A stretch of DNA of 63,822 bases, counting the filler, from Psammoneis japonica (taxonomy: Eukaryota): the NCBI GenBank assembly GCA_008632985.1. It is 4 parts of 4 records of this genome, joined end to end, with 100 filler letters (N's around TTAATTAATTAA, not from the genome) between each part and the next. Parts side by side here need not be neighbours in the genome. Positions count along the whole stretch, not along the records: positions 1 to 20,062 come from QPGO01000454.1; positions 20,163 to 40,169 come from QPGO01000455.1; positions 40,270 to 60,185 come from QPGO01000456.1; positions 60,286 to 63,822 come from QPGO01000575.1. One strand, given 5' to 3'. The notes under the pieces are model-generated. The model was not told where the DNA came from and did not search any database. It worked only from the letters and a program-made list of their open reading frames with translations. Positions 1-63,101 of this stretch are shown here, piece by piece (the first letter of the stretch is position 1; each line of letters starts with the position of its first letter). The translations under genes and the position numbers were made by a program.

Positions 1-524
1 ATCAAGATTTGGGGGGCGGGTTCTCAACCTGACATGCACGGCTCTGTTGTTTGCATGGAAGCATGCCACTCTGGTCCACTTTCCTTGGTGTTCCAAAGGT
101 CCTGCACTCAGAGGGCTGGTTGTTGGTGGACTTGGCGTGTCACATGCAAAAGTTGTGCATGTCATGTCAGCCTCATCATTAAATGCACAAAGCGCACAAG
201 CTTGCTGCTCAGTGGCGCACTCTGCCGGACATGTGAGACAGAGCAAAAGGGCGGTGCAAAGTTTGTTGTCTTGACTGGAAAGGGCCTCACAAATGGCACT
301 GGCTGCAGAAGCAGCTGCAGCAGAACCTTGCAAAGATCACACAGTGATTTTGTGGTGTCGCCAGAGCCAGCGGCATCCATGCAGGCATCCACAGCTGAAT
401 CCTCAGCTTTGCAACTAGACGTGCTGTCTTCATCATGACAAGCTTTGTGCCAAAAGAAGTCATGCACAACTCTGTCTCCGCAACAACAGGGCACACAATG
501 AAAAATCTTAAATAAGACAAAAAA

Positions 525-1132
525 TTTTGTTGGTCCTGTTGTGACGCGTTCCAGGTGCAGGTGGGACCTCGCACTGCTGAACTGTGACATCGACAGTTTT
601 TTGAATCGCGTCGCATGTCGCACACACAGATTTCTGCGTGATTTTTTCGATGTTTTGCATCATTTTACGGCAACAACTTTTGACATTTTTCATTGCAGCG
701 CGATTCTACAATGTCTTAAGAATCGCACAGGGCAGGCGCATTTTCAAAAACGTTGAGTGGCAAGAGGCACAATTGCACCACAAACTTGGCCGTTTGTTTG
801 ATGTTGAAGACAAATGCACCCATTGATTAAATTCTTGCACTGCGGAGCTTGCATGTAGAATTCTGCGGGCCCAATGTCACACGGAGTCCCACCCAGGGCT
901 GGAACGCGTCTTGTGACAGTCAGAGTGGTTTGTGCATGTGGCGCATGAAATCAGGACAGATGGAGGATCAGATGGTGTGTTGATTTCTTTGGCTGCATGT
1001 GTGACATTTGCAGAATTCAATTTTGGCACACCGTGATCAACAGTCATTTCTCGATGACAGTGGATTTTGTTGACAATGTTTTGGTGATCAACGTCATGCA
1101 TTGCAAGCTCAAGAGAGTTGTCTTGGTCTTTT
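525..1132 (+). repeat. Ngaro split direct repeat A1, interrupted by the MITE at 543-910
   Basis: tttgttggtcctgt before the MITE plus gtcagagtggtttgtg...gcattgcaagctcaagaga..ttggtctttt after it match 10639-10866. Confidence 0.8.
543..910. mobile_element. MITE, GAC-terminal family with 4-bp TSD
   Basis: Perfect termini GACGCGTTCC/GGAACGCGTC; TSD TTGT; interrupts Ngaro repeat A1. Confidence 0.85.
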
Positions 1133-1139
1133 GAAGACA

Positions 1140-3135
1140 ACACATCTGATTGTGTCACCAGCGGACAGCTGGAAGAACTTTTTCACAATCTGCCCATCAA
1201 ACGATGATGCCAATCACATGCTTGGTTCGCTGCGTGAGATTCTGCATGAAGGTCCTGCGGAGTCAAGTCAAGGAATGCATCTCAAAAGAGACACAGTGTT
1301 CCTTGGTGCATGCCAAGTGACAGGAAACCCTGTCTCGCTCCACAACTGTGCTGTCATTGGAGGATCAAGACTTCAACCGGACTCATTCCATGCCGTGTTG
1401 ATTGGAATGGAATCACGTGCTTGCCCAGCACAAGTCAACCCAGAAGACATGTTCCAACAGGTGGATCTTGATGCCCCAACCTGGAATGGCCTGAAAAACC
1501 TGGAGTCCATTGGCAAAGTGGAGAAAGTCACCCCTCTGGCTTGTGATGCATTCCATCTCAAGGTGGGACCTTGCACCACTGAACTGTGACATCCACAGTT
1601 TTTTGGATTGCACTGCATGTCGTGTGTGCACATTTCTGTGTGTGCGTTTCTACAAAATTGTTTTGCACTCCCTGTTTTGCAAAGCCAAAGGCTTTCTATT
1701 TTCTCCATTCATGACAATGAGAACAAGCTGGGTGCACTCTTTAATGTCTGAAGAAGGTGCCCACGCAAAGTGCAGACAATGTGCTTGAAGTGTGGAGAAG
1801 GAGATGCATGTGTAAAAACACCTCTTTTTCTGTTGGCGATCATTCTCATTTTCATTGCTGAACAATTTTGCTGTGCAGCTTGCACGCAGAATTCAGCGGG
1901 CGGAATGTCACAAAAAGTCCCACCTGGGGCTGGAACCCATCTCATGTGGACTCAGCAGCCAAAGCAACTGTTCACCAATCGTTGCTCTCCCTCCCTTCCC
2001 AGTGAGTCACTTCTTGGATGAAGAAGACAAGTCAGCCACCAACCCATTGATCATCACCCTCCCCAAGGAACTGCACAACCTTGCCTCCCAGTTTTGCAAA
2101 TGACTGACCTCAGCAGCTGCCAGGAACTGGGCCACGCACACTCTCAAGAGCAAGCTTGGATGACTGCTCATCCTCAAACAAGGCATTGTCACAGCAGCAC
2201 CAGCAGGTGAATTCCTTTGTGACAGAGATGACCTCCCAAACAACTTCAGTGCATTCTTCATTGCTCACCCCCTGATCTCCCCTGGCAGCAACAATGAGGA
2301 AGCAGTCTCAAACTTGGTGACTTGCCTCCACCCACAAGCAAAAGAAGGCAAATGACTTTCAGACAACAACATCAAGAAGATCATTGAACAGAAACTTGAG
2401 CGGCCTGCCACAGCCAATGCCCTCTCATTCCAGATCCAAAACTTCATGAGTCCACTTGCCATTGTCATGGGTGAGAACTCCCTGGCAGTCAAGAACCTCC
2501 TCACCTGGGTCTGCCATGTCAAGCAACATTGCATCACATGCAACAACCAACAAGCCCAGGACCCCACATTCCCAGCAAAAACACTCCTGGAAGTCTGTGG
2601 CAACATTGTCAATTCACTCATCTGCTTCTCTTGCCTCCAACATGAGACAGCACTGGGCTGTTTCACTCAAGCCACCCCAGCCTTTGTCTCCACCTCATTG
2701 ACGGATGACAAACATGGGGCCAAACACCAAGGAGACAATGCTTCCAAGGAAGGCAAACTTGTCCACAATGACAAGATGGTGCCGACCTGGAAACTCAGAC
2801 AAGGCAAAGACTTTGGCAAGGCATTCCATCCACATGTCAAGAATCTGTCAAAGTTTGAAGGCACACAACTCTGCAGCAAATGCCACGTCAAAGACCGCTG
2901 CACCACCAGCTGCAAGTTCAGTCACTCCAAGCCTTGTGACAAGTCCATGGAGGACATGTCCAAGTGGGTGCCATCTTGCTGCAATGGCTCCCCTTCAGAC
3001 AAGGATGACAAACAGGAATGGGATGCACGGTTTCGTCCACCGCCCAAACCTCCCCATGCCACTCCAGCTCTAAATGACACACACATGCAAGCTTGCCTGC
3101 CAAACAAGAAAACAAGAAATGGTTGGAAGAAATGA
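1140..3135 (+). pseudogene. Ngaro ORF1/gag-like remnant with C-terminal Cys/His zinc-finger-like motif
   Basis: ORFs 1101-1589 and 2446-3135; LCSKCHVKDRCTTSCKFSH motif; lies between A1 and pol; split by the MITE at 1545-1941 and TGA stops. Confidence 0.6.
1545..1941. mobile_element. MITE, same family
   Basis: Termini GATGCATTCC...GGTGGGAC / GTCCCACCTGGGGCTGGAACCCATC; flanks TTGT and TCAT (TSD diverged at a TG/CA site). Confidence 0.8.
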
Positions 3136-4338
3136 GGAGATCAAGTTGATCCTCACAACCTCCACCTCCCAAGACACCCAACCCCATCAGAGCAAAGCAA
3201 TCAAGTTCCCTTCTGCCCAATGACACCCCATCCTCCTGCGATGCCACAAAAGGATCAAGTTCCTTTTGACAGCACGTCCAACAGTGCCAACTTGCAATTG
3301 ACAGAGTCCCCTTCATCTCCAGGTGCAATTCAGAGATCTGCTCAACACAAGAGCCTAGACAGCAAGCACAAGCGCAATCTCAAACAACATCAGAGAACAC
3401 AAAATGCTTGTCAAGCATGCCAATCCACCTGGAACCATCAAACTGCAGGGCCAAGACTCTCAAGACTCAACGATGACACTCCCAACAGTTCAGCCCCCTG
3501 CAAAACCCCCAGGATGCAGACTCTGCCACCTTGTCATCAGACCTGATGACCGTGCAAGCTCCCTTGGACAGCACAAACCCCAAGGCACCCAGATCCGAAC
3601 AGTTTCCCTTGCAGGTCAACTTGGCAGAGCCTGCCGCAAACACCAAGGCACCCAAATCCAAACAGTCTCCCTCGCAGGTCGACTTGGCAGAGCCCACCAA
3701 AATGCCTGCCAGCTTGGCAGAACCAAAGGTCCTCAAATCTGCACAGCACCCTCTTTGGAGGCACCTGGCAGAACCTGCCAAACAGCCGCCTCTTCAGGCT
3801 GACCTGCAGATCCCTCTCAGGCACTAAAATCCGAAAAAGTCACCTGCCCAGACTGACCTGGTGAAGCCTCTCTCTCAGTTGTCAGCTGACACAGACACTG
3901 CAGATCACCCAACACATCTGGCCTCACAGCCAGAATGCTCACTCCCTCCACCTGAGACAGATCTGCTCCAGCTCATGAGCCAAATCACACCACAACCTCC
4001 ACGACTTGGTTTGGTTTTACCCGTTTGGGGATTCCCCAAAATGGCCAGGGCAAGGGGGAATTGCCTCACCCTTTTGGGGAATTCCCGGGCAACAAGGGCA
4101 ATTTAGCGGGAAGGAATGCCTGGAAGAGGTCAGGGGAGGGGAACAAAAAACGAGTGGATTGCGGTAATTCCGGATCTATTTGATTTAGGCTTACGTGCTT
4201 TTGCGTCTTGTGTGGTCGAATCCACTGCTGCTGCTGCCGGCAGCTGCTGCTAGAGCAGCAGCTCTCTACTCTAGAGCAGAGAACTTCAATTGTGTGGCAC
4301 TCTAGATTGGGAGCTCACTGTTGCCAATGCGCCACAGA

Positions 4339-7112
4339 TTAATCTGCTTCACTGCTGCTGTCGATGCCACTGCTGTTCTCCATCTCCAAAAGCTCCACAT
4401 TGACAGAGGCTGGCTGCGCGGTTTGTTGGATCATGTCAACCAAGCATTCGTTGATCATCCATGGCTTCAAGATTGTGTCATCAGTGCCATCACAATCTGG
4501 AGGCATTCCAAGGACACACCACCCACCACTTCGGCCCTTCTGGAAGTCAAGGTTGCCACTCAAAACAGTGCAGGCAACATCGTCATCCACCACATGAAAT
4601 GTCAAGCCCTCGTACTTCTCCAGCAGCCTGGCCTCCACAACTGGATCATTCTTCTCAAGCAGTGGCTTCTCCCAGTCTTCCAGCCAGCACCTGAACTTCC
4701 GCTTTGGGTGATCTCTCAAACTCTGGACATCCACCCCAAATCTCTCAAGACCCAGGTCAAACTTGGCGTCGTCATCACCCCACATGCCTCCTTTGCCGGA
4801 GTCCAATTTCTTCTTCTCAACTCTCTCGTGCCTGGCTTCCTGAAGCCATGCCGTGGTGTAGATGATGGCCTGCTTCTCTGTCTTGTCTCCACTCAGATGA
4901 GAGTGCTTGTTAGTCTTCAGCTGCTTCACGCCCCCCCACGACCTCTCAGCTGCACCTGTGCCTGGCAACTTGGACGTGGATTGGCAAGCGACAAACCCAA
5001 GAACCTTGGTGTGCGGGAGGGAGCATTTCTCATGCCACAACCAAGAGTTTCCCTCTGCGACATCAGGAACATTCCACCTGTTCATGTGACTGAATGGCCC
5101 CGTCTTCTTGGCGAAATGCTTGCACTCTGTCCAAAAAGTGTCCAGGGTGGTGGCAATGTCGGCATCGTCATGCGAGAGAAGCTTCACCACTGCTTCCTCG
5201 ATGTCATTTCGATCCACCCCAGTTGACCTGGCATCCACATCTTCCATGACCTCTGGCTGCACACAAAGGAGACAAGCGACTTTGGCAAACTTGCTCTCCA
5301 ACTTCACTCGCCGCTTGTCCCATGCCTGCCAAACCGTTGTTGCCAAGTCGACCACACAAGGCCCGTTGTCACCCGACTCGGCATTGTCGTCATCATCATT
5401 GCCCTCATCATCATCATCGGCACCCAAATCATCGTCAGAGTCATTGTCTTCATCAGAAGACATGTCGTCGTCATCTGAGTTACCACAAGTTGCGTCTTTG
5501 ACGTCATCTGAGCTGATGGCAGCTCCGAGAGGGAAACAAGTCTCGTCATCAAGACAATCTGTGGATTGCTCGAGGGCCTTGGTGGTCCTGTTGGTGAGGT
5601 GGAGCAGTTCATCCATGCCGGGTTGGTTGGAATCGGCCAGACGCAAGACCAAGAGAGTGGGGAACACACTGCGCAACAAGTGGTGTGTTGCCTGCCAGAA
5701 GTTTTCATCTGAAATGTCACGGGCGGCTCTACGATCAATCTCTTTTTTTCAAAGACCAGTCCACTGAGGCGTGTGAACTGTGGCAAGGAGAATGCTTTGG
5801 AGGCGCAAGGCTCGGTGCATGCTGCAGAAGCAAGATGCCATTCTAGTGTCTGCACCTTTGAGGAGACACACGCCTCTTCCTTGATTGACTGGCTTCGATT
5901 GGTTCACAAAAATGGCATGAGGAGCGTGACTTGAACCGGAGCCAAACACACGATAAAGGCGTTTCACTCACAGCATCATGATCTGGCAAAATTTCGGGTG
6001 GAAGGAGACAGCGGATGAGTGAGAGCAATGCCTTTGAAGAAAAGATTAAAACAAACAATCACACTCACCCATGCGGGATCAATCTTAGCTGCATCATGAA
6101 AAAACAGAGCAACACAGTGCTCCGCTCCATGCAGACAGGAAGCTCGGGGGCACTTGACCTCGAGTGTCTCTCCCGCTTTCTGAACGTTGGAGGCCCCATC
6201 AAAAAAGAATGTGTCAACCAAATGCTTCTGCGGATCAAGCTCTTGAGCATGGCTTAGAAAAATGTTTGCAGTGTGAGGAGCATCCTTTTTCCCTCCTTCC
6301 GCCATGTGCTCCTGGCAATTGTGCATCTCCAGTGCCATCGGTGGGACATTGGCGGTGAATCCCAATGCATTGAAGAGCAGTGGTTTTTTAATGGCAGCTC
6401 CATTGCCCAAAAAAGAGAGACCAAATGTCTTGGATTCAGCAAGCATTGCCTTCTTGTTGTTCTGGAGGCATTGTTGAAAATTCAGGTCAAGCAGTTCACC
6501 TCCAATTTTCTTGTTGTCAGGAGGACTGTGAGTGCTGCTGACTGTCCTTGCTGGCATTGGCACTCGCTCAAAATGGGCAGTTGTGGCCAAGGTAAATGGC
6601 AGCCCATGGGAGTGACTTGGGTCAGCAATCGCCGCAGTGAGCATGGCTTCATTTGCACCACTGACTGATCGTCAGCTGGAAGTTGCTCCTTCTCCACCAG
6701 AACCAGCCGAGTGGGCCACAATGGATGTTTGGATCTGTGGACGGAGATCCAACAGAGCTGCTGGTGTGCTGATGCTTGGCCAACAAAGCAGCCGCTGATG
6801 CTTCATTGGCCTCAGCAACAGCATCTTTGGTGGCAGCTGACACTCGTCTCTTGGCCGCCATTCATTCTTGCGAAGAATTGCACAGCCCACGATGCCGTTT
6901 GGCATGGTCATTGGAGATCTTGGCGTTGCAGGGCTTGACGTGCATCCTCTTGATCTTGCAGAGATGGGCGACAGCTTTTGTCGCGTTGAGCCCTTTGCAT
7001 GACTGCTTGCACCAGTGCTTGTGATTTCTGGGAGCTCATCTTCCTCTGCAACAGCAGTGACATGACTGTCGACACTCATGCCAGCATCATCCTGCTGCTC
7101 TTTGTCACTCAT
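4339..7112 (-). pseudogene. hAT transposase (DUF659-like plus C-terminal dimerisation region), mutated
   Basis: FFDGASNVQKAG...CLHGAEH; LYRVFGSG; ADTRMAS; WLWHEKCSLPHTKVLGFVACQSTSKLPGTGAAERSWG. Segments 5976-6644, 5749-5967 and 4339-5679 join in frame via one intron and TGA stops. Confidence 0.88.
5983..6068 (-). other. 86-nt spliceosomal intron in the hAT transposase
   Basis: GTGAGT donor at 6068 and ...TTTTGCCAG acceptor at 5983; removal joins KIDPAW to IMML*VKRLYRVFGSG in frame. Confidence 0.75.
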
Positions 7113-8071
7113 GTTTCAACATGCATTTTATGAGAGAAAGCAAAACCCTGCAATGTGAATGGTGAAAAAGATGCGGGTGAGCGCACGAAGTGTGAATGCC
7201 AAGACACCAGATGCACATCTCAACAAAAAAACACACCTGTGCCGGACACGTGGCATCAAAATGAAAGATGCGGCTCAACGTGACAACAAACAGATGCTGA
7301 ATCAACGTGGTGCGGCAATGCAAGAAGGTGCTGCAGCTGTGGAGAAGCCGCTGCGGCTGTCATCGTGTTGAGTGAGTGCTCCGAACTGCTGCGGGTGCAT
7401 GTGATTGCCAATGTGTTGTTTTTTGTTCGTGCATTGAGCATGCATGCAAAGAAGTGCAACTCATGGTGATTCCCCGGGAAATCACGCTTCCCGTGGAAAA
7501 TCACGGCAAAGGTGGCAATCCCGGGGAAATTTGGGGAATCCCGCGGTAAAACCAAACTGAGCTCCACGATTGCCTTCAAAACCAATTTTCTCTTTCAAGC
7601 CAACCAAAGAGGCAGCTGAACAAAACTGGATGATCTCATCTCAGTGCTTCAACTTGAATCTTGAACACACCTTGCGAGCACAAGGAGACTCAGTCTCAGG
7701 GTGTGGCTCAGAATTTTGATCTGTCAATGATCTTAGACTGCTCCTTCACCATCATCCGCTCTGGCCCAAAGTCAAGGACTTCTTGTCCAATGGCGCCAAA
7801 CACCCCACACACTTGATCAGTGATCAAGAATGCCAACACAACCTGTGCAAAGCAATTGAAAGAGGAAATCACAAGTCAGCAGTTCAAAACTCCTTGACAC
7901 TGTGAAAAAACTCTATGACGAGATGTCTTGTCTCCCCAGCACACTGGCAGCTCCTCCAAGAGTCAATGAGAGAGGCAAAGCAATCCCCTCCAAGCACTTC
8001 ACTCTTGACCAGTCCTTCAATTTTGGCTCTGGGGCTTCAGTGAATTCTAGAGTGATGCCTGAAGAAAAGCT

Positions 8072-8147
8072 TGATTTCCCAGGGAATCACCCTGAATTAC
8101 GCTTCGTCACATGCATGCTCCACACATGGACAAAAAATTGCACATTG
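8072..8147 (+). mobile_element. Fragment of a related hAT subterminal region, inverted relative to the full copy
   Basis: gatttcccagggaatcaccctgaattacgcttc...gcatgctc...aaaaa..cacattgg resembles the reverse complement of 7408-7483. Confidence 0.6.
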
Positions 8148-9214
8148 GAACTCCCCGTGCTTCCCCTCTCGTACATTTCTACGCCTTCTACGTGCCGGGA
8201 CGTAGGAGCCAGACGATCTGAGATCGACCGACCGCAACGCAACAAAAATGGGCAACACGCCATGGCGCGTTCACATCCCATTTGTGACGGCTTTTGTCCA
8301 TCAATCACAACGCCATTCAATGCATTCGATGACATCGATTGAACGGGACATGTGGCACAAAACACAAGATGAAACATGATTGCATGTGTGTTTGGAACAC
8401 TGGTTTAGTTGAGTCGTCAGTCGTCAGTTTTTCTTTTGTCGTGCAGCCACAAATTTAAGCCACAAGGCACACAGCAAAGGCCAAGGCAAAAGCAGAACCA
8501 TGCACAGCCAACAACAACAATGTGGAGGATTGAACAGTCACCCTCATTCTTCCAATTTACACATGTTGTGTTCAGAATGAAGGGGATTGTTTAGATGACT
8601 CTTTTTCCACATGCCCGCCATTTTCTAAGTCATCTCCACTGACTCATGCAACAAGCTGAGAACAGACGCTGGTGCAAGATGCGGCCTCCAGAGATTGAAG
8701 ATGCCAAACTTGGACCAAGTTTCTTGTCCAAGCTTGAGACAGCATCAGTCTGAACCTGACTGCTTGCCACAAATTGACTCATGTCTGCAGATCAGATGTG
8801 CCCAAACATGGAATCAGAGGATGCAATGCAATGACTGGACAAGCACAACAAGGACTCAAACTGCAAGATCACCTTGCACATGGTCTCAACCTCAACACCA
8901 AGGAGTTCATCGCAAGCACAGTCTGCACCTGGATTGCCTGCATTGAAGGCAACCTGCCACCCAAAATTCAACTTTGATGGAGAGACCAACCCGGAACAGA
9001 TGGAAGTCGCCCGCTGGTTTGCACCCATCATGATGATTGACAAGAGTCAATCCTTTGGTCAATGGTTCCCAGGAAGGAAAAGAATGTTGTCAGCAATTGT
9101 CTGTCTCATGACGGGAATCCATCCATCAAGATGCTGACCCTTTTTCTTTGTCATGTTGTTCCAAAAAGGTTCCTCAAAATTTCACATCTCTCCATTGCCC
9201 AACAAAATTGTTTG

Positions 9215-10300
9215 ATGCTTGACCTCCTTGATGCTGAAGGAGCCCATGAAGCCCATGCCAAAGACACCAACAAGAAGCAAGACACAGCTTTCACCCACTG
9301 GGAAAAGTTTCTTGGCAAGATTGGACTTGGCGGTGACCCCTTCATGGACAACCTCACCATCGCCCATTGCCATTGCACCCTTGGAGCCTTTGCAGCAGCA
9401 GCAGTCAGAGACAGGCAGCACTTGGCTGAACAATTTGAAACACTGGTGGCAGGGGCCATCAGAGCTGTTGTGGACAATGTGACAGCAGCCTCCAGATTTT
9501 ACAACAGGAAGGACCCAAGGTTAGATGAGGATGGGTGCACCTCATGCCTTTTGCTCTGACAGTGCAGAGGCTGCAAGAACCAAGATGGGAAACAGAAGCA
9601 ACAGAAAGTGATCACTGCCTCCCTCTCATGCACCTTGTCCTGACAGCAAGCAACATCAAGGATGTGGCAATGAGTCAACTGACAATCGGAGCCTGGTTCT
9701 TTGCCATGGGATTGTGCAAACATTCTGAGACTAAAGGCAACCAATGCACCAAGCCACCATGTCTGAAAAACCTTTGCTTCTTCTGCAACAACACCAAACT
9801 GGACCACAATGATCAAGACTTAGCACTGGCGGACACTGTCTCCATCACCTTTGAGCATTAGAAGAACAACAAACAGTGTGACACAATGACAATGTTCTGC
9901 ACCAGAGACAACCTGCTCTCTGCTCTGCTCAGTTCAAGCAAGGGCTGCAGTTGTTCACTGAGCATCCTCCTGCCCCAGATCCCTTCCAGACTCTCCAGTG
10001 TGCACCATTTGCACTGATGGCAAGCTGCACTCTCTCAAATCTTCCATGACACTGGCCAAGATGCAAGCTGCAACCACAGCAATTGGCAAGGAGAAGCTGG
10101 GATGTGAAGCACACGAGATCGGAGCACATTCAATCCACTCAGGTGCAGCAATGGCAGTGCACCTCACAAATGCACCTGTGTGCTCTGTTGTGCTGATTGG
10201 CAGACAGTCCTCTGATGGCTTCCCATGACATGTCAGGAAACAAACTCAACAGCTCAGCATCAATGTCTCCACAAAGATGATCAAGCACCGGCACTTCTTC
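9215..10300 (+). pseudogene. Tyrosine recombinase of the Ngaro element, inactivated
   Basis: DPRLDEDG, GAWFFAM, TVSITFE and IGAHSIHSGAAMAVHL..LIGRQSSDGFP*HVRKQ match the YR C-terminal consensus HSIRSGAA...GRWSSDAF.RYIR; the catalytic Tyr position reads CAT (His). Confidence 0.85.
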
Positions 10301-10485
10301 ACTGTCCCAGATGCAAACTCCGATGACCCACGAATCCAAGACCACCACAAAAACCAAGCTGTTTGCACAAATGATGGCCCACATCAAGTGCAGTTGATGG
10401 CACAACTTCCATGGTTTGCTCTCTTCTCCTGAGCAGCTTGGTGCAGAGCCTTCAGATTGAAAATTTGCAAGTGAGTCATGATGGC

Positions 10486-11039
10486 GCATCATCTCCGGCA
10501 CTGTTGGGTCCCTGGGGAATCATCATTTGTGGGAATGAAAATTTTCCAGGCCAAACTGTTGGGTTTTAATGTCAGACCACTTGCACTTGGGATTGGAGTC
10601 CACTGCCTGTGGTGAGGACTTGGCTCAATGGGTCATCATTTGTTGGTCCTGTGAGTCAAAGTGGTTTGTGTGTGTGGTGCATGAAATCAGGATGTGCAGA
10701 GGATCAGATGGTGCGTTGATTTCTTTGGCAGTGTGTGTGACACTTGGAGAACTCAATTTTGGTGTGCCATGATCAAGAGTCATTTCTCGATGACAGTGGA
10801 TGTTCAACAATGCCGTGACAATCAATGTCATGCATTGCAAGCTCAAGAGATTTGTTTTGGTCTTTTAAATTCCCCAAACCCACCCTGCATCATCTGCGGC
10901 ACTGTTGGGTCCCTGGGGAATCTTCATTTGTGGGAATGAAAATTTCCCAGGCCAAACCGTTGGGTTTTGATGTTGGACTGTTCACTCTTGGGATTGGAGC
11001 CCATGACCTGTGGTGAGGACTTGGTTTGATGGGTCATCA
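10486..11039 (+). repeat. Ngaro 3' split repeats B1 (10486-10638), A2 (10639-10866), B2 (10887-11039)
   Basis: gcatcatct.cggcactgttgggtccctggggaatc...gggtcatca occurs twice, flanking a second copy of repeat A. Confidence 0.85.
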
Positions 11040-19357: not shown

Positions 19358-19398
19358 CTCTTCGCTGGTCTTGACAAGACAAACATCATGCACCATGT

Positions 19399-20049: not shown

Positions 20050-20062
20050 ACACAGAACGGTG

Positions 20063-46403: not shown

Positions 46404-46668
46404 TCATTTGGCTTCTTTCAGGCTGTCTTTTAGTCTTGGACGGACCACAGAGATCCAGCTTTGGATCCTCGTTGTTGAAAATGACAGTTGTTCTTCGACC
46501 GAATCCAGCAATGCGCCTCTGTCCTTCGCCAAGCATTCTTGTCGTTTGTTGCATGTCGCCGTCAGCTTGGCTTCCGCCTTCCTCTGTTGAGATGATTTCC
46601 AAGAATCAACATCGTGCCCATGAACCAACTTGCTGTGCTCTTCCCAAAGTTCCCACCAGCACCTCTGC
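46404..46668 (-). pseudogene. Possible non-LTR retrotransposon ORF2 C-terminal fragment
   Basis: WQRCWWELWEEHSKLVHG resembles the W..LW..RN..VHG motif at LINE ORF2 ends; short match only. Confidence 0.35.
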
Positions 46669-49600: not shown

Positions 49601-49783
49601 GGAAACCACATGTTTATTTTCCTTGAAACACACATTTGTTTTCCTTGAAACAACACGTTTGTTTTCCTTGAAAAGACATGTTTGTTTTCCTTGAAACCAT
49701 GTGTTTGTTTTCCTTGAAACCGCGCGTTTGTTTCCTTGAAATGGCACGTTTGTTTTCCTTGAAAAGACATGTTTGTTTTCTTT
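46669..49783 (-). repeat. 23-bp satellite arrays 46669-47135 and 48105-49783
   Basis: Same unit; separated by a ~1-kb non-satellite block. Confidence 0.95.
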
Positions 49784-49785
49784 GA

Positions 49786-51392: not shown

Positions 51393-54300
51393 TCCAAGGA
51401 AAAAAACATGTTGTTTCAAGGAAAACAAACGCGTCATTTTAAGGAAAACAAACATGTGGTTTCAAGGAAAACAAACATGTGGTTTCAAGAAAAACAAACA
51501 TGTCGTTTCAAGGAAAACAAACATGTCGTTTCAAGGAAATCAAACATGTCTTTTCAATGAAAACAAACATGTTGTTTCAAGGAAAACAATCATGTTGTTT
51601 CAAGGAAATCAAACATGTCTTTTCAGTTGAAACAAACATGTCGTTTCAAGGAAAACAAACATGTGGTTTCAAAGAAAACAAACATGTCTTTTCAAGGAAA
51701 ACAAACGTGTCTTTTCAAGGAAAACAAACATGTCGTTTCAAGGAAAACAAACGCGTCATTTCAAAGAAAACAAACATGTGGTTTCAAGGAAAACAAACAT
51801 GTTGTTTCAAGGAAAACAAATGTGTGTTTTCAAGGAAAACAAACACGTGGTTTCAAGGAAAACAAACATGTCATTTCAAGGAAATCAAACATGTCTTTTC
51901 AAGGAAAACAAACACGTCGTTTCAAGGAAAACAAACATGTCATTTCAAGGAAATCAAACATGTCTTTTCAATGAAAACAAACATGTCGTTTCAATGAAAA
52001 CAAACATGTCGTTTCAAAGAAAACAAACATGTCTTTTCAAGGAAAACAAACATTTCGTTTCAAAGAAAACAAACATGTCTTTTTAATGAAAACAAACATG
52101 TCGTTTCAAGGAAAACAAATGTGTCATTTTAAGGAAAACAAACATGTGGTTTCAAGGAAAACAAACATGTCGTTTCAAGGAAAACAAACACGCCATTTCA
52201 GAGAAAACAAATGTGTTGTTTCAAGGAAAAGAAATGTGTCTTTTCAAGGAAAACAAACATGTCGTTTCAAGGAAAACAAACATGTTGTTTCAAGGAAAAC
52301 AAGTGTGTCTTTTCAAGGAAAACAAACATGTTGTTTCAAGGAAAACAAACATGTCGTTTCAAGGAAATCAAACATGTCTTTTCAATGAAAACAAACATGT
52401 CGTTTCAAGGAAAATAAACACGTCGTTTCAAAGAAAACAAACATGCCAAGGAAAACAAACATGCCATTTCAAGGAAAACAAACATGTTGTTTCAAGGAAA
52501 ACAAATGTGTCTTTTCAAGGAAAACAAACATGTTGTTTCAAGGAAAACAAACATGTCGTTTCAAGGAAATCAAACATGTCTTTTCAATGAAAACAAACAT
52601 GTCATTTCAAGGAAAATAAAGACGTCGTTTCAAAGAAAACAAACATGCCATTTCAAGGAAAACAATCATGTTGTTTCAAGGAAAACAAATGTGTGTTTTC
52701 AAGGAAAACAAACGTGTGGTTTCCAGGAAAGCAAACATGTTGTTTCATGGAAAACAAGCATGTCTTTTCAAAGAAAACAAACATGTCTTTTCAAGGAAAA
52801 CAAACGTGTCTTTTCAAGGAAAACAAACATGTCGTTTCAAGGAAAACAAACGTGTCGTTTCAAGGAAAACAAACATGTCTTTTCAAGGAAAACAAATGTG
52901 TTGTTTCAGGGAAAACAAACACGTGGTTTCAGAGAAAACAAACATGTCTTTTCAAGGAAAACAAACATGTCGTTTCAAGAAAAACAAACGTGTCATTTCA
53001 AAGAAAACAAACATGTCTTTTCAAGGAAAACAAACGTGTCTTTTCAAGGAAAACAAACGTGTCGTTTCAGGGAAAACAAACATGTTGTTTAAAGACAAAC
53101 ACGTTGTTTCAAAGAAAACAAACACATCTTTTCAAGGAAAACAAACGTGTCGTTTCAAGGAAAACAAACACATCTTTTCAGAGAAAACCAAGGTGTCATT
53201 TCAAGAAAAACAAACGTGTGGTTTCAAGGAAAACAAACGTGTCATTTCAAGGAAAACAAACATGTCTTTTTGAGGAAAACAAACATGTCTTTTCAAGGAA
53301 AACAAACATGTCGTTGTGTTGAACCTGTCACCTCTTCTGGGACTCGTCCTCCCATGTCTGACACACTGGCTGCAATCATGCGTCTGATGTCACATGTCCA
53401 TTTGGCGCCATGGGACCAAAGTCGTCTGTGAGCGCCAGTCCGGCGCAGAGTCACACGGACTCTTTTCTTCAACTCACAAATGGATGCCTCGGCCAGGTTC
53501 TGCCAGGGGCTGCATGGGGTGGACACCTCCTGGTGCATCCTGCATTCCCTGCAGATCTCCTTGGTCTGGCCTTCCACCATTTCTGGCGCGCCATCCGACA
53601 CAAGGACCTGCGGTGCGCCAACGTCATGCACAAATGACATGACGGCATCTGGGTGGTCCTGTTTCCTCTTCCAAGGAAAAAAACATGTTGTTTCAAGGAA
53701 AACAAACGCGTCATTTTAAGGAAAACAAACATGTGGTTTCAAGGAAAACAAACATGTGGTTTCAAGAAAAACAAACATGTCGTTTCAAGGAAAACAAACA
53801 TGTCGTTTCAAGGAAATCAAACATGTCTTTTCAATGAAAACAAACATGTTGTTTCAAGGAAAACAATCATGTTGTTTCAAGGAAATCAAACATGTCTTTT
53901 CAGTTGAAACAAACATGTCGTTTCAAGGAAAACAAACATGTGGTTTCAAAGAAAACAAACCTGTCTTTTCAAGGAAAACAAGCGTGTCTTTTCAAGGAAA
54001 ACAAACATGTTGTTTCAAGGAAAACAAACGTGTCATTTCAAGGAAAACAAACATGTGGTTTCAAGGAAAACAAACATGTTGTTTCAAGGAAAACAAATGT
54101 GTGTTTTCAAGGAAAACAAACACATGGTTTCAAGGAAAACAAACATGTCATTTCAAGGAAATCAAACATGTCTTTTCAATGAAAACAAACATGTCTTTTC
54201 AAGGAAAATAAACACGTCATTTCAAGGAAAACAAACATGTCGTTTCAAGGAAATCAAACATGTCTTTTCAATGAAAACAAACATGTCGTTTCAATGAAAA

Positions 54301-57300
54301 CAAACATGTCTTTTCAAGGAAAACAAACATTTCGTTTCAAAGAAAACAAACATTTTGTTTCAAAGAAAACAAACATGTCTTTTTAATGAAAACAAACATG
54401 TCGTTTTAAGGAAAACAAATGTGTCATTTTAAGGAAAACAAACATGTGGTTCAAGGAAAACAAACATGTCGTTTCAAGGAAATCAAACATGTCTTTTCAA
54501 TGAAAACAAACATGTCGTTTCAAGGAAAACAAACATGTGGTTTCAAAGAAAACAAACATGTCTTTTCAAGGAAAACAAACATTTCGTTTCAAAGAAAACA
54601 AACATGTCTTTTCAGGGAAAACAAGCGTGTCTTTTCAGTGAAAACAAACATGTCGTTTCAAGGAAAACAGGCATGTCTTGAACACAAACATGTCTTTTCA
54701 AGGAAAACAAACATGTCGTTTCAAGGAAAACAAACATGTGTTTTCAAGGAAAACAAACATGTGGTTTCAAGGAAAACAGACATGTCGTTTCAGGGAAAAC
54801 AAGCGTGTCATTTTAAGGAAAACAAGCATGTCTTTTCAAGGAAAACAAACATGGCACCAACCCATCCTGCCTGACAGAGGGAGTGCATGGTCAAATTCGC
54901 AAGTCCGCTGTGCAGATGCACCACATGGTGACAACCCATCCTGCGATGAGAGGGAGAGTTGGACAAATGCTGTGCGATGATGCTGTGCACAACACAGGCA
55001 TCAGAGTGCACGAAACGTTAAAAATGTGTGGATTTGCATGATGGCAATTTGTCAAAATGTTGCAAAAAATTGTTGTCGCACAATGACAGGCCAACCTCTG
55101 GCTGCAAGTTTGCTGTGCCAATGTCGCGACAACTTGTTGAGAATCATGTGCGCCATTTTTCACTGTGCCCACATTGCCATTTCTGCCTCCACCTTGTTGC
55201 CATGTGCCAATCCATGATTGCATTGCCGTGCAATCCTTGGTTTGTCAATTTTTGCAAACAGGGGTGTGATCACAGAACCACTTGCGTGCCTGCTTGTTCC
55301 TTCGTTTGCTGCCAGCGACAGTGTCTGGGCCAAGCAGATCCCATGTCGGCACAATCGGGACGTCTTTCTTTTCGTTCTTGTCACGGCTTGACTTTTTCCT
55401 GCCTTGCTTTTTCCTCTTGACTGTCGCCTTGAGTTTCTTTTTTTTTCCCTTTCCCTCTTCCTTGGCAACAACGCCTGCACAGACAAAGCATCACCGTCAT
55501 CTTCTTGTGGCTCAACAGTCTCATTTTTCTTTCTCTTCTTTGCCGGTGGTGCTGGATTGGCGGTGGCAGGTTTTGACTGCCAGACACCAAATGAGGAGTT
55601 GCTCAATTGCGGGTGCTGCTCAAGCATTCCAGAGGTGTCACACACTTTCATCTGGGAGAGGATCAACCCCACAAATTGCTGCACATTGCAGTCTCGTGGA
55701 TCCAACTGAACTTGGGGACAGGCATGAGCTTCTTGTGGGGTGCAGATGCTGTTCTCCTGCACATGGAATCATGTTGGTTTGCTTCCGTCAGTGCGTTCTT
55801 GCGCAGAATTCAAGGCAAACTCATGTTGTTTTAAGAAAGACAAACGTGTCATTTCAAAAAAAATGTCAATTCAAGGAAAACAAATGAAAACAAACATGTT
55901 GTTTCAAGGAAAACAAATGTGTCTTTTCAAGGAAAACAAACATGTTGTTTCAAGGAAAACAAACATGTCGTTTCAAGGAAATCAAACATGTCTTTTCAAT
56001 GAAAACAAACATGTCATTTCAAGGAAAACAAAGACGTCGTTTCAAAGAAAACAAACATGCCATTTCAAGGAAAACAATCATGTTGTTTCAAGGAAAACAA
56101 ATGTGTGTTTTCAAGGAAAACAAACATGTCGTTTCAAGGAAAACAAACGCGCCATTTCAAGGAAAACAAACATGTTGTTTCAAGGAAAACAAATGTGTCT
56201 TTTCAAGGAAAACAAACATGTGGTTTCAAGGAAAACAAACATGTTGTTTCAAGGAAATCAAACATGTCTTTTCGGTGAAAACAAACATGTTGTTTCAAGG
56301 AAAACAAACATGGCAGAGGTGCTGGTGGGAACTTTGGGAAGAGCACAGCAAGTTGGTTCATGGGCACGATGTTGATTCTTGGAAATTGTCTCAACAGAGG
56401 AAGGCGGAAGCCAAGCTGACGGCCCCATTCACTCAGATCGACTCTGAAGGGAATGCCCGCCAGATCATGAAGGAAACAGTTGGCCACTGACGCAATGCCC
56501 GTTGCAGTGTGCATGCAGACAAAAGGTTGTTTTTGTCACAACCTTTGTGGCATTTAAATTGCAGCACGTCGCCGTGATGCATTGGCTCTTGTCAGCAGCT
56601 GCGCACTGCACTCATCCCCATGTGTCGCGCGTCCATGCGGCACTTGGCTGACGTGCACTGACACTGCACAGTTTTGGTGGAACAGTGTGGGTGCGTGCGA
56701 AGGAACACACAGAACTGCACAGAGTTTTGCACGTTCGACAGTGATCAACGTTGCTGCGGACAACTCCCGCTCAGGGTTTCGAACCCCTGGCCTCCTGCCC
56801 AATGGTTGCGATGAGCCACTCCGCCAAAAATTCATGATGCAGCATGCGTGCAGACAAAAGGTTGTTTTTGTCACGACCTTTGTGACATTCAAATTGCAGC
56901 ACGTTGCCGTGATGCATCAACTCTCATTGGCAGCTGCACATTGCACCGTGCTGCAACGGCCAATGACGGGTGCACAACGACCAAGACTGGCAGGCGCGCT
57001 CCTGGGAGGACGACTGCAGGCTGGGACCTGCGAGTCGAACAGAAGGATGGGACTGCATCATGGGTTCCTCTCAAGGATTTGAAGTCAAAGAAAACAAACA
57101 TGTCTTTTCAAGGAAAACAAACGTGCCATTTCAAGGAAAACAAACGCGCGGTTTCAAGGAAAACAAACACATGGTTTCAAGGAAAACAAACATGTCTTTT
57201 CAAGGAAAACAAACGTGTTGTTTCAAGGAAAACAAATGTGTGTTTTCAAGGAAAATAAACATGTGGTTTCCAGGAAAGCAAACACGTCGTTTCATGGAAA

Positions 57301-60185
57301 ACAAGCATGTCTTTTCAAAGAAAACAAACATGTCTTTTCAAGGAAAACAAACGTGTCTTTTCAAGGAAAACAAACGTGTCGTTTCAAGGAAAACAAACGT
57401 GTCGTTTCAAGGAAAACAAACATGTCTTTTCAAGGAAAACAAATGTGTTGTTTCAGGGAAAACAAACACGTGGTTTCAGAGAAAACAAACATGTCGTTTC
57501 AAGAAAAACAAATGTGTCGTTTCAAAGAAAACAAACATGTCTTTTCAAGGAAAACAAACGTGTCTTTTCAAGGAAAACAAACGTGTCGTTTCAGGGAAAA
57601 CAAACATGTCGTTTAAAGACAAACACGTTGTTTCAAAGAAAACAAACACATCTTTTCAAGGAAAACAAACGTGTCGTTTCAAGGAAAACAAACACATCTT
57701 TTCAGAGAAAACCAAGGTGTCATTTCAAGAAAAACAAACGTGTGGTTTCAAGGAAAACAAACGTGTCATTTCAAGGAAAACAAACATGTCTTTTTGAGGA
57801 AAACAAACATGTCTTTTCAAGGAAAACAAACATGTTGTTTCAAGGAAAACAAACATGTCTTTTCAGAGAAAACAAACGTGTCATTTCAAGAAAAACAAAC
57901 ATGTCTTTTCAAGGAAAACAAACATGTTGTTTCAAGGAAAACAAACGCGTCATTTCAAGGAAAACAAACATGTGGTTTCAAGGAAAACAAACATGTTGTT
58001 TCAAGGAAAACAAATGTGTGTTTTCAAGGAAAACAAACACGTGGTTTCAAGGAAAACAAACATGTCATTTCAAGGAAATCAAACATGTCTTTTCAATGAA
58101 AACAAACATGTCTTTTCAAGGAAAATAAACACGTCATTTCAAGGAAAACAAACATGTCGTTTCAAGGAAATCAAACATGTCTTTTCAATGAAAACAAACA
58201 TGTCGTTTCAATGAAAACAAACATGTCTTTTCAAGGAAAACAAACATTTCGTTTCAAAGAAAACAAACATTTTGTTTCAAAGAAAACAAACATGTCTTTT
58301 TAATGAAAACAAACATGTCGTTTTAAGGAAAACAAATGTGTCATTTTAAGGAAAACAAACATGTGGTTTCAAGGAAAACAAACATGTCTTTTCAAGGAAA
58401 TCAAACATGTCTTTTCAATGAAAACAAACATGTCGTTTCAAGGAAAACAAACATGTGGTTTCAAAGAAAACAAACATGTCTTTTCAAGGAAAACAAACAT
58501 TTCGTTTCAAAGAAAACAAACATGTCTTTTCAGGGAAAACAAGCGTGTCTTTTCAGTGAAAACAAACATGTCGTTTCAAGGAAAACAGGCATGTCTTGAA
58601 CACAAACATGTCTTTTCAAGGAAAACAAACATGTCGTTTCAAGGAAAACAAACATGTGTTTTCAAGGAAAACAAACATGTGGTTTCAAGGAAAACAGACA
58701 TGTCGTTTCAGGGAAAACAAGCGTGTCATTTTAAGGAAAACAAGCATGTCTTTTCAAGGAAAACAAACATGGCACCAACCCATCCTGCCTGACAGAGGGA
58801 GTGCATGGTCAAATTCGCAAGTCCGCTGTGCAGATGCACCACATGGTGACAACCCATCCTGCGATGAGAGGGAGAGTTGGACAAATGCTGTGCGATGATG
58901 CTGTGCACAACACAGGCATCAGAGTGCACGAAACGTTAAAAATGTGTGGATTTGCATGATGGCAATTTGTCAAAATGTTGCAAAAATTGTTGTCGCACAA
59001 TGACAGGCCAACCTCTGGCTGCAAGTTTGCTGTGCCAATGTCACGACAACTTGTTGAGAATCATGTGCGCCATTTTTCACTGTGCCCACATTGCCATTTC
59101 TGCCTCCACCTTGTTGCCATGTGCCAATCCATGATTGCATTGCCGTGCAATCCTTGGTTTGTCAATTTTTGCAAACAGGGGTGTGATCACAGAACCACTT
59201 GCGTGCCTGCTTGTTCCTTCGTTTGCTGCCAGCGACAGTGTCTGGGCCAAGCAGATCCCATGTCGGCACAATCGGGACGTCTTTCTTTTCGTTCTTGTCA
59301 CGGCTTGACTTTTTCCTGCCTTGCTTTTTCCTCTTGACTGTCGCCTTGAGTTTCTTTTTTTTTCCTTTCCCTCTTCCTTGGCGACAACGCCTGCACAGAC
59401 AAAGCATCACCGTCATCTTCTTGTGGCTCAACAGTCTCATTTTTCTTTCTCTTCTTTGCCGGTGGTGCTGGATTGGCGGTGGCAGGTTTTGACTGCCAGA
59501 CACCAAATGAGGAGTTGCTCAATTGCGGGTGCTGCTCAAGCATTCCAGAGGTGTCACACACTTTCATCTGGGAGAGGATCAACCCCACAAATTGCTGCAC
59601 ATTGCAGTCTCGTGGATCCAACTGAACTTGGGGACAGGCGTGAGCTTCTTGTGGGGTGCAGATGCTGTTCTCCTGCACATGGAATCATGTTGGTTTGGCT
59701 TCCGTCAGTGCGTTCTTGCGCAGAATTCAAGGCAAACTCATGTTGTTTTAAGAAAGACAAACGTGTCATTTCAAAAAAATGTCAATTCAAGGAAAACAAA
59801 TGAAAACAAACATGTTGTTTCAAGGAAAACAAATGTGTCTTTTCAAGGAAAACAAACATGTTGTTTCAAGGAAAACAAACATGTCGTTTCAAGGAAATCA
59901 AACATGTCTTTTCAATGAAAACAAACATGTCATTTCAAGGAAAACAAAGACGTCGTTTCAAAGAAAACAAAACATGCCATTTCAAGGAAAACAATCATGT
60001 TGTTTCAAGGAAAACAAATGTGTTTTTCAAGGAAAACAAACATGTTGTTTCAAGGAAAACAAACGCGCCATTTCAAGGAAAACAAACATGTTGTTTCAAG
60101 GAAAACAAATGTGTCTTTTCAAGGAAAACAAACATGTGGTTTCAAGGAAAACAAACATGTTGTTTCAAGGAATTCAAACATGTCT
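51393..60185 (+). repeat. 23-bp satellite arrays 51393-53312, 53672-54852, 55822-56311, 57084-58771, 59740-60185
   Basis: Same unit, interleaved with duplicated transposon fragments. Confidence 0.95.
56503..56945 (-). mobile_element. TRIM-like element, copy 4 (inverted duplicate of copy 3)
   Basis: TSD CCGT; flanks identical to copy 3. Confidence 0.88.
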
Positions 60186-60285
60186 NNNNNNNNNNNNNNN
60201 NNNNNNNNNNNNNNNNNNNNNNNNNNNNNTTAATTAATTAANNNNNNNNNNNNNNNNNNNNNNNNNNNNNNNNNNNNNNNNNNNN
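60186..60285. other. Artificial contig linker
   Basis: Identical 100-nt linker. Confidence 0.98.
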
Positions 60286-63101
60286 CAAGCTCAAGTTGGT
60301 GCTCACAAGAGAAATGTGCTTCAACAAAAGCACCATTGAGGCACAAAGTGTTGAAGAGTCAAAACCAGCTCTCCACTTGCCATCACCTGGAAGTCCAAAG
60401 AAGCTCAACTTTTTGGTGTTCACAAATGACTTTGCTGCAGCTGTTTGTGCCTGACCACTGCTTTGTTGACAACCTGTGCATGCAACCACATGTCTGCTGC
60501 TTTGCCAATGGGCTTGTCAGAAAACAGATGGTGCCCTCTTGGTGTGAGCCAATGACAAAAAAATTAGACATGACAGCAAGAGCTCTCTTTTTGCACAGGC
60601 ATGATGAGTGCTGCTTTTGCATGTGCTCAACATTGCAAGGAAGCAGCAAGAGCAAAGAGCACAGTCACAAGCTGCATGAGTTGGTTGATGCATGCAGCCA
60701 GAGTGGGTCAAGAAAAGAATGTGGACCAATTGAGTGGTGCAACCAGAGCCAGCATCATCATTTCCCCCCAAGAACAACACTTGTCACCAGGTCTTGTCAG
60801 TTTTTGCCAGTGCATGAGATTGAATGACTCTGGTGCACCAAACAGGCAAATGTGACTGTGGAAATCTGCACCCACCTGGTGCACAAAACTGATCAAGCTG
60901 AAAATGCTTGTTCTTTTCCCACTTGTCTTTCAGCTTTGCAGGCTGCAAAGTTTCAAGCCAGTGAGAGTGCTGAAGGCATTGATTTGGGAGCCACAGCTTT
61001 CCACATGGTGGCATTGAAGCAGCACTTAAAATGTTCACATCAGGGGTGGTGTCTTCCAAAAAAAGATCTTTGGGGTGAGTTGAGACTGCAGCTGTTGGCT
61101 GCAGTGCTTCAACAGTGCAGACCTCTGGGGCATGCCAGTTGTCAGCATGTGGACCAGGTTCAAAGATGGGCCATTGTGCTCTTCACAGCAGCACATTGGA
61201 GGTGAGGCTTGTGTCCAAGGACAAAGCAGCCGGGTTGAACAAAGGACTGGCAGTGCTGGCACAGCAGCACAAGAACACCCAAGCACTGTCTGCACAAGGT
61301 GTTTTAAGGCCAGGAGAGGAGGCATGGCAGAGGCACCACTCTGCTGGCAGCAGCAGCAGCATTCTTCACAGCAGATGCAGCCAACAGCATCATTGCTCAC
61401 AAGGATTTTTTGCTCTCCTCAGTTAGAGATTTGTGTGCAGGAGAGTTGTCAAGATGGGTTTGAGGCACACCAAAAAAATGACTTGCCCCAGTTGAAAAGG
61501 GCAAAGCTTTCTGTGTGTCATGCAGAAAATGTGATGTGAGTGTTGACACAAGCTGGGCGGCATCATGACCTTGGTTTTGGCTTGCATGTGTCCATGCCTG
61601 CCCTGCAGGTGGAACATGCATGGGGTTCAGCACTGATTTTTCTTTGAAAGGGCATCAACTTTTGCTGGCACAAAACTCACATTTCCAGCACACAAACATG
61701 CACACTTGTCTTCAAGCATTTTGTTCTCACACTTTGTTGGAAATGTCTCCTGGTGCAAATGCCAAGAATGTGCCAAAAGCTCAAAAAAGTGAGGAACAGC
61801 ACCACCATGAAGTGCATTTTCATGGTGCTGGTTGAAAAGATCTTTGTTGTTGCAATGGCTCAAATGACAGAGTTGTTGCACAACACATTTCAAACAAATT
61901 GAGTGCAGGAAAGCAATGACCACTGGCAAAACAGAGTCATGGCTGCTGGCAAAATGGATGTCAGCACTGGCCTGCCAGCAGCTTTCTAGTTTCTGTGTGT
62001 GCAGCTGGCACAAACAGCCAGCAGCAGCCACACATGCTGTGTGCACCACCAGCCAAGCTCTGCCAGTGGCTTCCACTGTGTGACACCACACCAAGTTTAG
62101 GTGCTCTGCCTTGAGTTCATTGGGGTTGTCCTCCCTGACCAGATTGCTTGGCCAAATGGCACAAGAACCTCCTGTCAATGAGAGGCCTGCAGTTGGCATG
62201 CTCCACTGCAGCTGCAATGTGATGAGAGGTGGGTGACCAACAGGCTCTCAATGATCATGTGGTTGCCTGTTGCAGCCAATTGCCTTTGTTGCATCATTGT
62301 TGTTCTGTTGGCTCAGGCTGCTGTTGTCAAAATGCAGCAACTCACACCATTTGCTTGCGAAAACACCAATGTTGCAATGAGAGGACCCCCCCGAGTGCCC
62401 ACAGTGGCATGAGAAATCTGGTGCCAACCAGACAGCTCAGAGCAAAATAAAAGAGGTACAAACAAAGGGAGAAAGTCCTGCTGTTGAACTGTGATTTGCA
62501 TCAGAAGTCATTGCATGAATCAGAAGAGTTAAGAAGCACACAAATGAAGATTCAAAATGTGACGCTCTCGGACTGTCGGACACGTTACAAACGACAAAAC
62601 GGGCGTAATTCGTGTCGACTCTGAATGCATGAGCAGGTTCCACTCTACTCTAGAGAGCGCACCTCTAGAGCTAGCTAGCTTCGAGATACGGTGCAGTAGA
62701 GTAGAGACGTTCCTTCTATGAACGAGACGCACTTTTACCTCCTGGACTAAGATATAATGTATGCCAGAATCGATGTAAGCTACTCTCCAAGAGAGCGATA
62801 AGAGGCACGCTCGTTGAACAGATGCGCGGGGTACAATTTAGATAGAGATTTGCAGCCAATCCAACGTAGCTTTGGCAGAGTCGAAAATTTCAGTGTCGTA
62901 GGCCCTTGGCATAGGGCCCTAACAAAGTGCCGAATAAATCCAAAATTTCAGGTGTGGTAGCCTTCTACTCTAGTAGTAGTACATTTCCCGCAGCGACTCT
63001 CGGCAGCCTTCGCCACATTGGGTCGAGTTTTCGAGTGAAAGCACCATAAACAAAGAGAGTTTCTGCCTTTGAGGCATTCATTCGTTGTCTCCTGGCACAC
63101 A

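Follow-up and report, generated by a model that had tools for sequence, protein, structure and literature searches.

Our analysis of a 63,822-nucleotide stretch of DNA from the Psammoneis japonica genome assembly (GCA_008632985.1; the whole stretch is called "the window" below) shows that the dinucleotide TA is nearly absent from about 62 kb of DNA in four contigs, that TG and CA are abundant throughout the same DNA, and that the depletion ends abruptly beside an intact gene. The reading that we favour, and consider likely, is that this is silenced algal repeat DNA which has been edited in the genome, almost to completion, by a TpA-specific transition process. A first-pass annotation of this DNA had proposed an A:T to G:C mutator acting at TpA on both strands of repeat DNA, and this core proposal is upheld by the findings below: Tyr has become Cys or His where relatives keep Tyr, copies of the same repeat have reached TG or CA independently, and the adjacent gene has been spared. 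The class of mechanism is already in print; what is new here is the probable lineage, the degree of the effect, the range of its targets, the co-extensive loss of CpG and the sequence context of the surviving sites.

Dinucleotide composition of the window

The window is made up of the parts listed here, all given without strand (o/e is the ratio of observed to expected counts). The spacers between its four contigs (1–20062, 20163–40169, 40270–60185 and 60286–63822) consist of N44, TTAATTAATTAA and N44.

1..20062: contig 1, hypermutated domain; TA 99 of 1306 expected (o/e 0.076), CG o/e 0.33
20163..40169: contig 2, hypermutated domain; TA 52 of 1253 (o/e 0.041), CG o/e 0.58; internal repeat families that differ by TG versus CA
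40270..60185: contig 3, hypermutated domain; TA 49 of 1587 (o/e 0.031), CG o/e 0.68; Copia fragments alternating with a 23-bp satellite
60286..62445: contig 4, repeat part; TA 6 of 142 (o/e 0.042), CG 4 of 128 (o/e 0.031); diverged copies in the public sequencing run X1
62446..63822: contig 4, unmutated flank, 1377 bases; TA o/e 0.63, CG o/e 0.99

The whole window holds 275 TA (o/e 0.063), with o/e values of 0.51 for CG, 1.65 for TG and 1.64 for CA. With the spacers and the flank excluded (that is, up to about position 62445), 206 TA are observed against 4287 expected from base composition, and 200 mononucleotide shuffles gave a mean of 4275 TA (standard deviation 46) and a minimum of 4155. 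All 62 of the one-kb windows up to position 62000 have a TA o/e of 0.25 or less, with TG and CA mostly at 1.4–2.0 (1.58–2.0 each when taken per contig), and the longest run free of TA is 2051 bases. Counts and shuffles agree on the near-absence of TA and the abundance of TG and CA over the four contigs that had first drawn attention to this DNA. It had also been said that every element class is affected; the depletion is indeed uniform throughout, but the only parts that could be classed are five Copia fragments, the 23-bp satellite and one relic with a hAT-like motif.

The deficits of TA (4081) and CG (1756) sum to 5837, close to the TG plus CA surplus of 5121, and the TA deficit is more than twice that of CG. 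CpG loss is uneven among the elements (o/e 0.03 in the contig 4 repeat and 0.33–0.68 elsewhere) while TA loss is uniform, so the two processes are at least partly uncoupled.

Loss of tyrosine from the encoded proteins

The following protein-coding relics are recognizable in the mutated DNA:

44044..45549, plus strand: Copia protease-integrase frame P0001, stop to stop, 501 codons, 0 Tyr
50341..51429, minus strand: second Copia fragment, from integrase to the part before the reverse transcriptase (RT), Tyr-free in the aligned stretch
41915..42283, minus strand: further Copia fragment
49783..49980, minus strand: further Copia fragment
53227..53706, minus strand: further Copia fragment
56890..57177, plus strand: further Copia fragment
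4342..5748, minus strand: relic frame P0198, 469 amino acids (aa), 17 relatives with E values down to 1e-106

As judged through its relatives and its family profile, the frame at 44044–45549 appears to belong to the Ty1/Copia elements, with their protease-integrase-RT order and DD35E integrase core. A representative library holds 3543 relatives of P0001 (best identity 47–48%), of which the full-length ones are about 1360 aa long and carry RVT_2 downstream of the aligned part, and a PDB search with the family profile finds the retroviral integrase core (E 3e-4). In Pfam, P0001 itself gives nothing significant, only one sub-threshold match, to TNFR_c6 (E 0.009). It had been described as a 497-aa frame without Tyr; the absence of Tyr stands, but the frame from stop to stop is 501 codons long.

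When P0001 is compared with 36 aligned relatives, all nine columns in which Tyr is the majority residue are altered, to Cys (4), His (2), Phe (2) and Leu (1). Among its 74 amino-acid changes, 20 are of the kind predicted by TA loss and 4 are the reverse; ten control relatives treated likewise gave, when pooled, 59 predicted and 45 reverse changes, and lost from 1 to 6 of their 11–15 Tyr columns. Codons in which TG or CA is native have been retained (Trp 6/6, His 3/3, Gln 4/6), which indicates that the change is specific to TA and not a general drift from A to G. The conversion of PYSPWQN to PCSPWQN reported in the first-pass annotation was found again, with PCSPWQN present at 45310, 51220 and 53497.

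A wider comparison gave the same picture. Over 20 tblastn alignments with the four closest relatives, 159 Tyr positions of those relatives face Cys 54 times, His 38, Phe 28, Leu 11, Arg 8 and Tyr not once, while in the relative-versus-relative baseline the residue opposite Tyr is again Tyr in 56% of cases, with Phe at 11.7% and His at 4.8%. None of 213 fetched relatives is free of Tyr (the lowest content is 0.67%, and the median over all 216 proteins is 3.07%); the three window frames have 0, 0 and 0.43%. The P0198 relic has 0.4% Tyr as against 1.5–3.6% in its relatives, and seven of its nine conserved-Tyr columns are altered. The eight of 159 positions at which Tyr faces Arg are a hint that CA or TG slowly goes on to CG in a second step.

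Independent change in each repeat copy

We compared 23 pairs of non-satellite paralogues within the window, some copies being members of several pairs so that the pairs overlap. Between the members of these pairs, transitions (834) outnumber transversions (147). Among the dinucleotide differences CA/TG is the commonest (167), followed by CA/CG (130), CG/TG (122), TA/TG (17) and TA/CA (8), the last two classes being small since hardly any copy still has TA. A CA/TG difference implies a common ancestor with TA or CG at that place and an independent resolution in each copy. Strand-coordinated clusters were not found along the copies (87 runs against 81.3 expected, z 1.1); the choice of TG or CA is random along a copy and thus points to single events on either strand, not to a process moving along one of them. 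Pairs at 96–97% identity have their TG/CA states in common, and so were duplicated after mutation. From these alignments it appears that each repeat copy has been mutated independently and in place.

The edge of the mutated domain

The window contains only one edge of the depleted domain. The depletion ends between 62098 and 62448, where within about 350 bases the TA o/e rises from 0.04 to 0.63 and that of CG from 0.03 to 0.99, so that the CpG deficit stops at the same edge as the TA deficit. Inside the unmutated flank lies one gene:

63102..63821, plus strand: P0002, intact open frame, 240 aa, running off the contig end

P0002 has a weak Pfam match to a DpnI-like (methyl-directed nuclease) family that falls below the cut-off (E 0.0046), and its sequence has a CxxC...CxHC box with D...E-I-K after it. 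Its only homologues are two environmental proteins of 579–580 aa with 33% identity; there is no close match in public protein sets, and its Atlas matches score below 0.9. In run X1 it is a member of a multi-copy family (contigs over 62811–63436), and diverged X1 contigs cover 63135–63288 and 63326–63386. At all nine TA sites of the window copy in these intervals the diverged contigs have TG (4) or CA (5), and 6 of the 15 CG sites of the P0002 copy are altered as well; this comparison rests on 40 of 194 differences, and the lists for these zones may be incomplete. In the run, one copy of this gene family is mutated and another is not, and the mutated window DNA is repeated wherever its copy number could be judged. 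P0002 may itself belong to a selfish element, of which the other copy has been hypermutated. The possibility that intact copies of the affected elements are just as poor in TA is ruled out by these findings, since the protein relatives keep Tyr and the intact P0002 copy keeps the TA that are converted in the diverged one.

Inside the depleted domain there is one small island that has kept its TA:

4165..4340, without strand: 176-base island retaining 9 TA

This island and the unmutated flank (at 62643) have a common motif, CTCTACTCTAGAG, for which there are five matches at no more than two mismatches where 0.12 are expected. Possible identities for the island are a recent insertion, the end of an element and a regulatory site that is protected from change. 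Letters rich in CTCTAC/CTAGAG, resembling the island and the flank at 62640–62710, also occur in loose ends of the run contigs.

Sequence context of the surviving TA sites

Of the 206 TA that survive, 71 sit in TTAA. The share of survivors in each context is listed here as survivors divided by survivors plus possible products, a measure in which native TG and CA inflate the denominators:

TTAA: 6.1%
CTAA/TTAG: 3.1%
CTAG: 2.2%
CTAC/GTAG: 2.2%
GTAA/TTAC: 1.4%
GTAC: 0.7%
ATAA/TTAT: 0.7%
ATAG/CTAT: 0.4%
ATAC/GTAT: 0.07% (1/1509)
ATAT: 0/1123

A model with one parameter per base fits these values: at the second base 5' of the target A the order of preference is A > G > C > T, which amounts to T > C > G > A on the 3' side; the 5' and 3' preferences are inseparable because the TpA site is symmetric. 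Such a flanking-base preference could identify the enzyme, and the saturated state of this DNA offers many substrate and survivor sites from which to read it.

Comparison with known hypermutation systems

Fungal repeat-induced point mutation (RIP) changes C to T at CpA, and in doing so creates TpA and stop codons. It resembles the pattern in the window in that transitions fall in one dinucleotide context, copy by copy, on repeats and selfish DNA, with adjoining genes spared. It differs in that here TpA is destroyed, GC content is raised, no stops are made and long open frames are left. We reject RIP itself, as a TA o/e of 0.03–0.08 with a CA o/e of 1.6–2.0 lies in the opposite direction. Deamination of 5-methylcytosine (5mC) at CpG yields TG and CA, and the CpG deficit in the same domain (o/e 0.03–0.68) is what it would leave; as the whole cause it is likewise rejected, since it cannot remove TA, and it would be a second, separate process on the same DNA. 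The earlier view that neither of these suffices is thus sound: both are C to T processes, which cannot give this pattern, and 5mC deamination covers the CpG deficit only. ADAR and APOBEC enzymes offer a further parallel, in that these deaminases inactivate viruses and retroelements in animals through transitions that fall in clusters. The substrate of ADAR, however, is RNA, and its editing is rarely complete, while APOBEC gives C to T or G to A; strand-coordinated clusters are not seen in the window.

The first-pass annotation knew of no description of such a system in diatoms. A 2026 preprint reports hypermutation from TpA to TpG/CpA in the chlorarachniophyte Bigelowiella natans (Mettrop et al., bioRxiv 10.64898/2026.01.13.699255). 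According to the passages of the preprint covered here, 15 mutation-accumulation lines yielded 302 new single-nucleotide mutations, of which 231 lay in integrated giant-virus and virophage regions, and 230 of these 231 consisted of A to G or T to C changes, every one of them at TpA, with a local mutation rate about 1000 times that of the genome across generations (10.64898/2026.01.13.699255). The same passages describe 324 TpA-poor coding sequences enriched for reverse transcriptase and DDE domains and 124 clusters of windows poor in TpA and rich in CpA and TpG; the authors liken the phenomenon to RIP, read it as a RIP-like defence and propose an ADAT2-like adenine deaminase (10.64898/2026.01.13.699255). 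In the literature searched we found no other description of TpA to TpG/CpA hypermutation, and none for diatoms.

So far as those passages go, the two cases have much in common: TpA is the target, with TpG and CpA as products on both strands; TpA depletion is coupled to a CpA and TpG surplus in clustered windows; and the effect is limited to foreign or selfish DNA with normal DNA adjoining it, transposon-type proteins being among the targets. They differ in the kind of evidence, as the rate and spectrum were measured there in mutation-accumulation lines and here the end state alone is seen. They differ also in degree, the effect in B. natans being mild (viral region Rho 0.45, TA 3.3% of dinucleotides) and that in the window amounting to an o/e of 0.03–0.08 over 62 kb. 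The targets here are Copia fragments, a satellite, unclassified repeats and a gene-family copy, CpG loss is co-extensive, and a survivor context (TTAA commonest, ATAT never) is reported only here as far as the covered passages extend.

The host lineage of the window DNA is probably a diatom or other stramenopile and not a chlorarachniophyte, to judge from its protein matches. The only named relative of P0001 is a Phaeodactylum tricornutum protein (30% identity), Bacillariophyta is the commonest recorded phylum in the Atlas cluster nearest to the Copia family, and no B. natans protein is among the named matches of P0001 and P0198. It is unlikely that the DNA is that of B. natans itself.

Mechanism and alternative explanations

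In the mechanism that we propose, the A of a TpA on either strand would be deaminated to hypoxanthine in DNA and read as G at the next replication, turning TA into TG or CA, and this would be repeated over many generations until TA is exhausted. The deaminase would be of the TadA/ADAT2 type, preferring a 5' T and directed to silenced or foreign DNA, as has been proposed for B. natans. We put this enzyme step forward with less confidence than the editing process as such, and a targeting signal and a function in defence are presumed along with it. Repeat copies have been struck independently, site by site, and the action halts at a sharp edge beside an intact gene; CpG has been lost separately from the same domain, presumably via deamination of 5mC. 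No stop codons are made, TAA and TAG are removed, and proteins are disabled by missense changes, above all from Tyr to Cys or His.

Several points weigh against the idea of TpA-specific editing in the genome. Part of the CA/TG differences between paralogues comes from ancestral CG, although a rough estimate by hand, derived from the CG/CG (261) and CG/mutated (252) counts, puts this at only about 30 of the 167. The 359 satellite monomers show no clear TA-derived TG/CA dimorphism, and their dimorphic sites may derive from CG. P0198 is less clean than P0001, with 15 predicted changes as against 11 reverse ones and two of nine conserved Tyr kept. Finally, the DNA is carried by one sample from one study, with no RNA data set listed among its carriers, and the support from run X1, which is possibly the source of the assembly and whose library type is unrecorded, is not independent.

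The alternative that survives best, although we regard it as unlikely, is that the T of TpA is the modified base, being oxidized for example to 5-hydroxymethyluracil by a TET/JBP-type enzyme, as happens in dinoflagellates, with mispairing with G or mis-repair then giving T to C on either strand. TpA is self-complementary, so the products of T to C and A to G changes are indistinguishable; in addition, the co-extensive CpG loss means that base-modifying machinery has been active on the domain, and 5-hydroxymethyluracil prefers TpA in dinoflagellates. Nevertheless, none of our observations favours modification of T, and the preprint, in its covered passages, gives an ADAT2-like candidate in B. 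natans and reports no T-modifying one (10.64898/2026.01.13.699255).

An origin in RNA is improbable. Here double-stranded RNA of the elements would be edited from A to I at UA by an ADAR- or ADAT-like enzyme, then reverse-transcribed and inserted already mutated. Copia fragments are indeed among the targets, ADARs favour a 5' U (10.64898/2026.01.13.699255, in the passages covered), and TG/CA states that are independent in each copy would be equally expected. However, the depletion is uniform over 62 kb that include the satellite, unclassified DNA and the relic with a hAT-like motif; at least 90% of sites are converted, on both strands; a gene-family copy that is not a retroelement is converted at 9 of 9 TA sites (among the differences listed); and the changes reported for B. 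natans appear during mitotic growth, in the sequence of integrated double-stranded DNA viruses (10.64898/2026.01.13.699255, likewise in the passages covered).

We give marginally less credence still to an artefact, in which base modification or polishing led the base-caller or assembler to write G or C for A or T at TpA. Such an error would be in keeping with the fact that X1, with the limits noted above, is the only strong holder of this DNA, and with the restriction of the effect to repeats, a class of DNA that is often heavily modified. (In run X2 cover is limited to the TA-normal gene part, and run X3 covers none of the window.) But the X1 contigs match contig 4 with 0 differences at a word depth of about 33, and one of them, 1324 bases long, spans the domain edge. 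These Logan contigs are built from exact 31-letter words and reach lengths of up to 315 kb, which makes an artefact of noisy reads or polishing unlikely, as noisy long reads would not yield such contigs. Furthermore, polymerase-based reads do not convert modified A or T to G or C, copies stably differ by TG versus CA at the same site, and the same signature was obtained by Illumina NovaSeq sequencing in B. natans, according to the covered passages (10.64898/2026.01.13.699255).

The absence of any directed mutator, with compositional drift, biased gene conversion or selection against TA in the elements or their source doing the work, is scarcely credible: mild TpA under-representation is common, and the flank itself has an o/e of 0.63, but o/e values of 0.03–0.08 and TA-free runs of up to 2051 bases are far beyond drift, biased gene conversion is not dinucleotide-specific and native TG/CA codons are stable while Tyr is kept in 0 of 9 columns, relatives of both protein families keep Tyr, and copies diverged after duplication with a polarity and an independence that already contradict it.

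TpA-specific editing of repeat DNA in the genome thus remains the reading that we prefer. We extend it more tentatively, and with doubt slightly outweighing belief, to the suggestion that a TpA-specific editing defence is present also in a stramenopile (a diatom) and is maybe ancient in the stramenopile-alveolate-Rhizaria group, that it saturates all kinds of repeats including satellites and gene-family copies, that it has a boundary in common with CpG methylation, and that it has a flanking-base preference. If the window comes from a diatom or another alga outside the chlorarachniophytes, the reversed RIP signature, so far described in one 2026 preprint alone, would extend to another major lineage of algae, where it would be much stronger, and the case for a widespread eukaryotic genome defence by A:T to G:C editing would gain support. 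Such regions also have practical consequences: they evade domain-based annotation of transposons, their spurious long open frames would lead gene finders to over-call, and they bias estimates of GC content and of mutation spectra.

Open frames, other repeats and unclassified DNA

There are 107 stop-to-stop frames of at least 150 aa in the 64 kb, on both strands and often overlapping; TAA and TAG have been erased and TGA is the sole stop left, which accounts for these many long frames. Pfam searches with 100 window frames of at least 150 aa found no transposon family, only sub-threshold or spurious matches such as LbR_Ice_bind from the satellite, and Rfam and tRNA scans of the window found no RNA genes.

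The C-terminal motif of P0198 is one that we take to be hAT-like, although Pfam, PDB and fold searches did not confirm this. P0198 and nine close relatives match no Pfam family, and one distant relative has DUF659. A profile search of the PDB with P0198 gave no match, nor did a Foldseek search of the PDB with its AlphaFold model (mean predicted local distance difference test score 60) at E of 0.001 or below.

In 9500–10399 (plus strand), when stops are read as X, there is a stretch of the form H-S-I-H-S-G...L-I-G-R-x-S-S-D...[stop]-H-V-R-K. Pfam gave 0 families here; the stretch resembles the catalytic box at the C terminus of a tyrosine recombinase (Crypton or DIRS type) in which His has replaced the catalytic Tyr. 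Two of the strings that had been cited as cases of Tyr loss, GCGSEF* (from GYGSEFR) and *HVRK (from a catalytic RYIRK), do exist, at 7699–7716 and 10229–10240, but no family could be tied to them.

The tandem arrays of the window are as follows:

51395..54853, without strand: 23-bp satellite, largest array
41209..41848, 45548..45809, 46669..47072, 48105..49785, 55886..56312, 57085..58771 and 59802..60184: 23-bp satellite, other arrays
39535..40169: AAATGCRR array, 8/16-bp, at the end of contig 2

The 23-bp satellite unit is without TA, and the rare variants that do contain it always have it within TTAA or TTAT. At the start of contig 3 (40270–41000) lies a 729-base imperfect inverted self-match at 65% identity, and this contig is mirrored over large parts (for example 49924–50367 versus 56503–56946), which suggests that it underwent a big inverted duplication after hypermutation.

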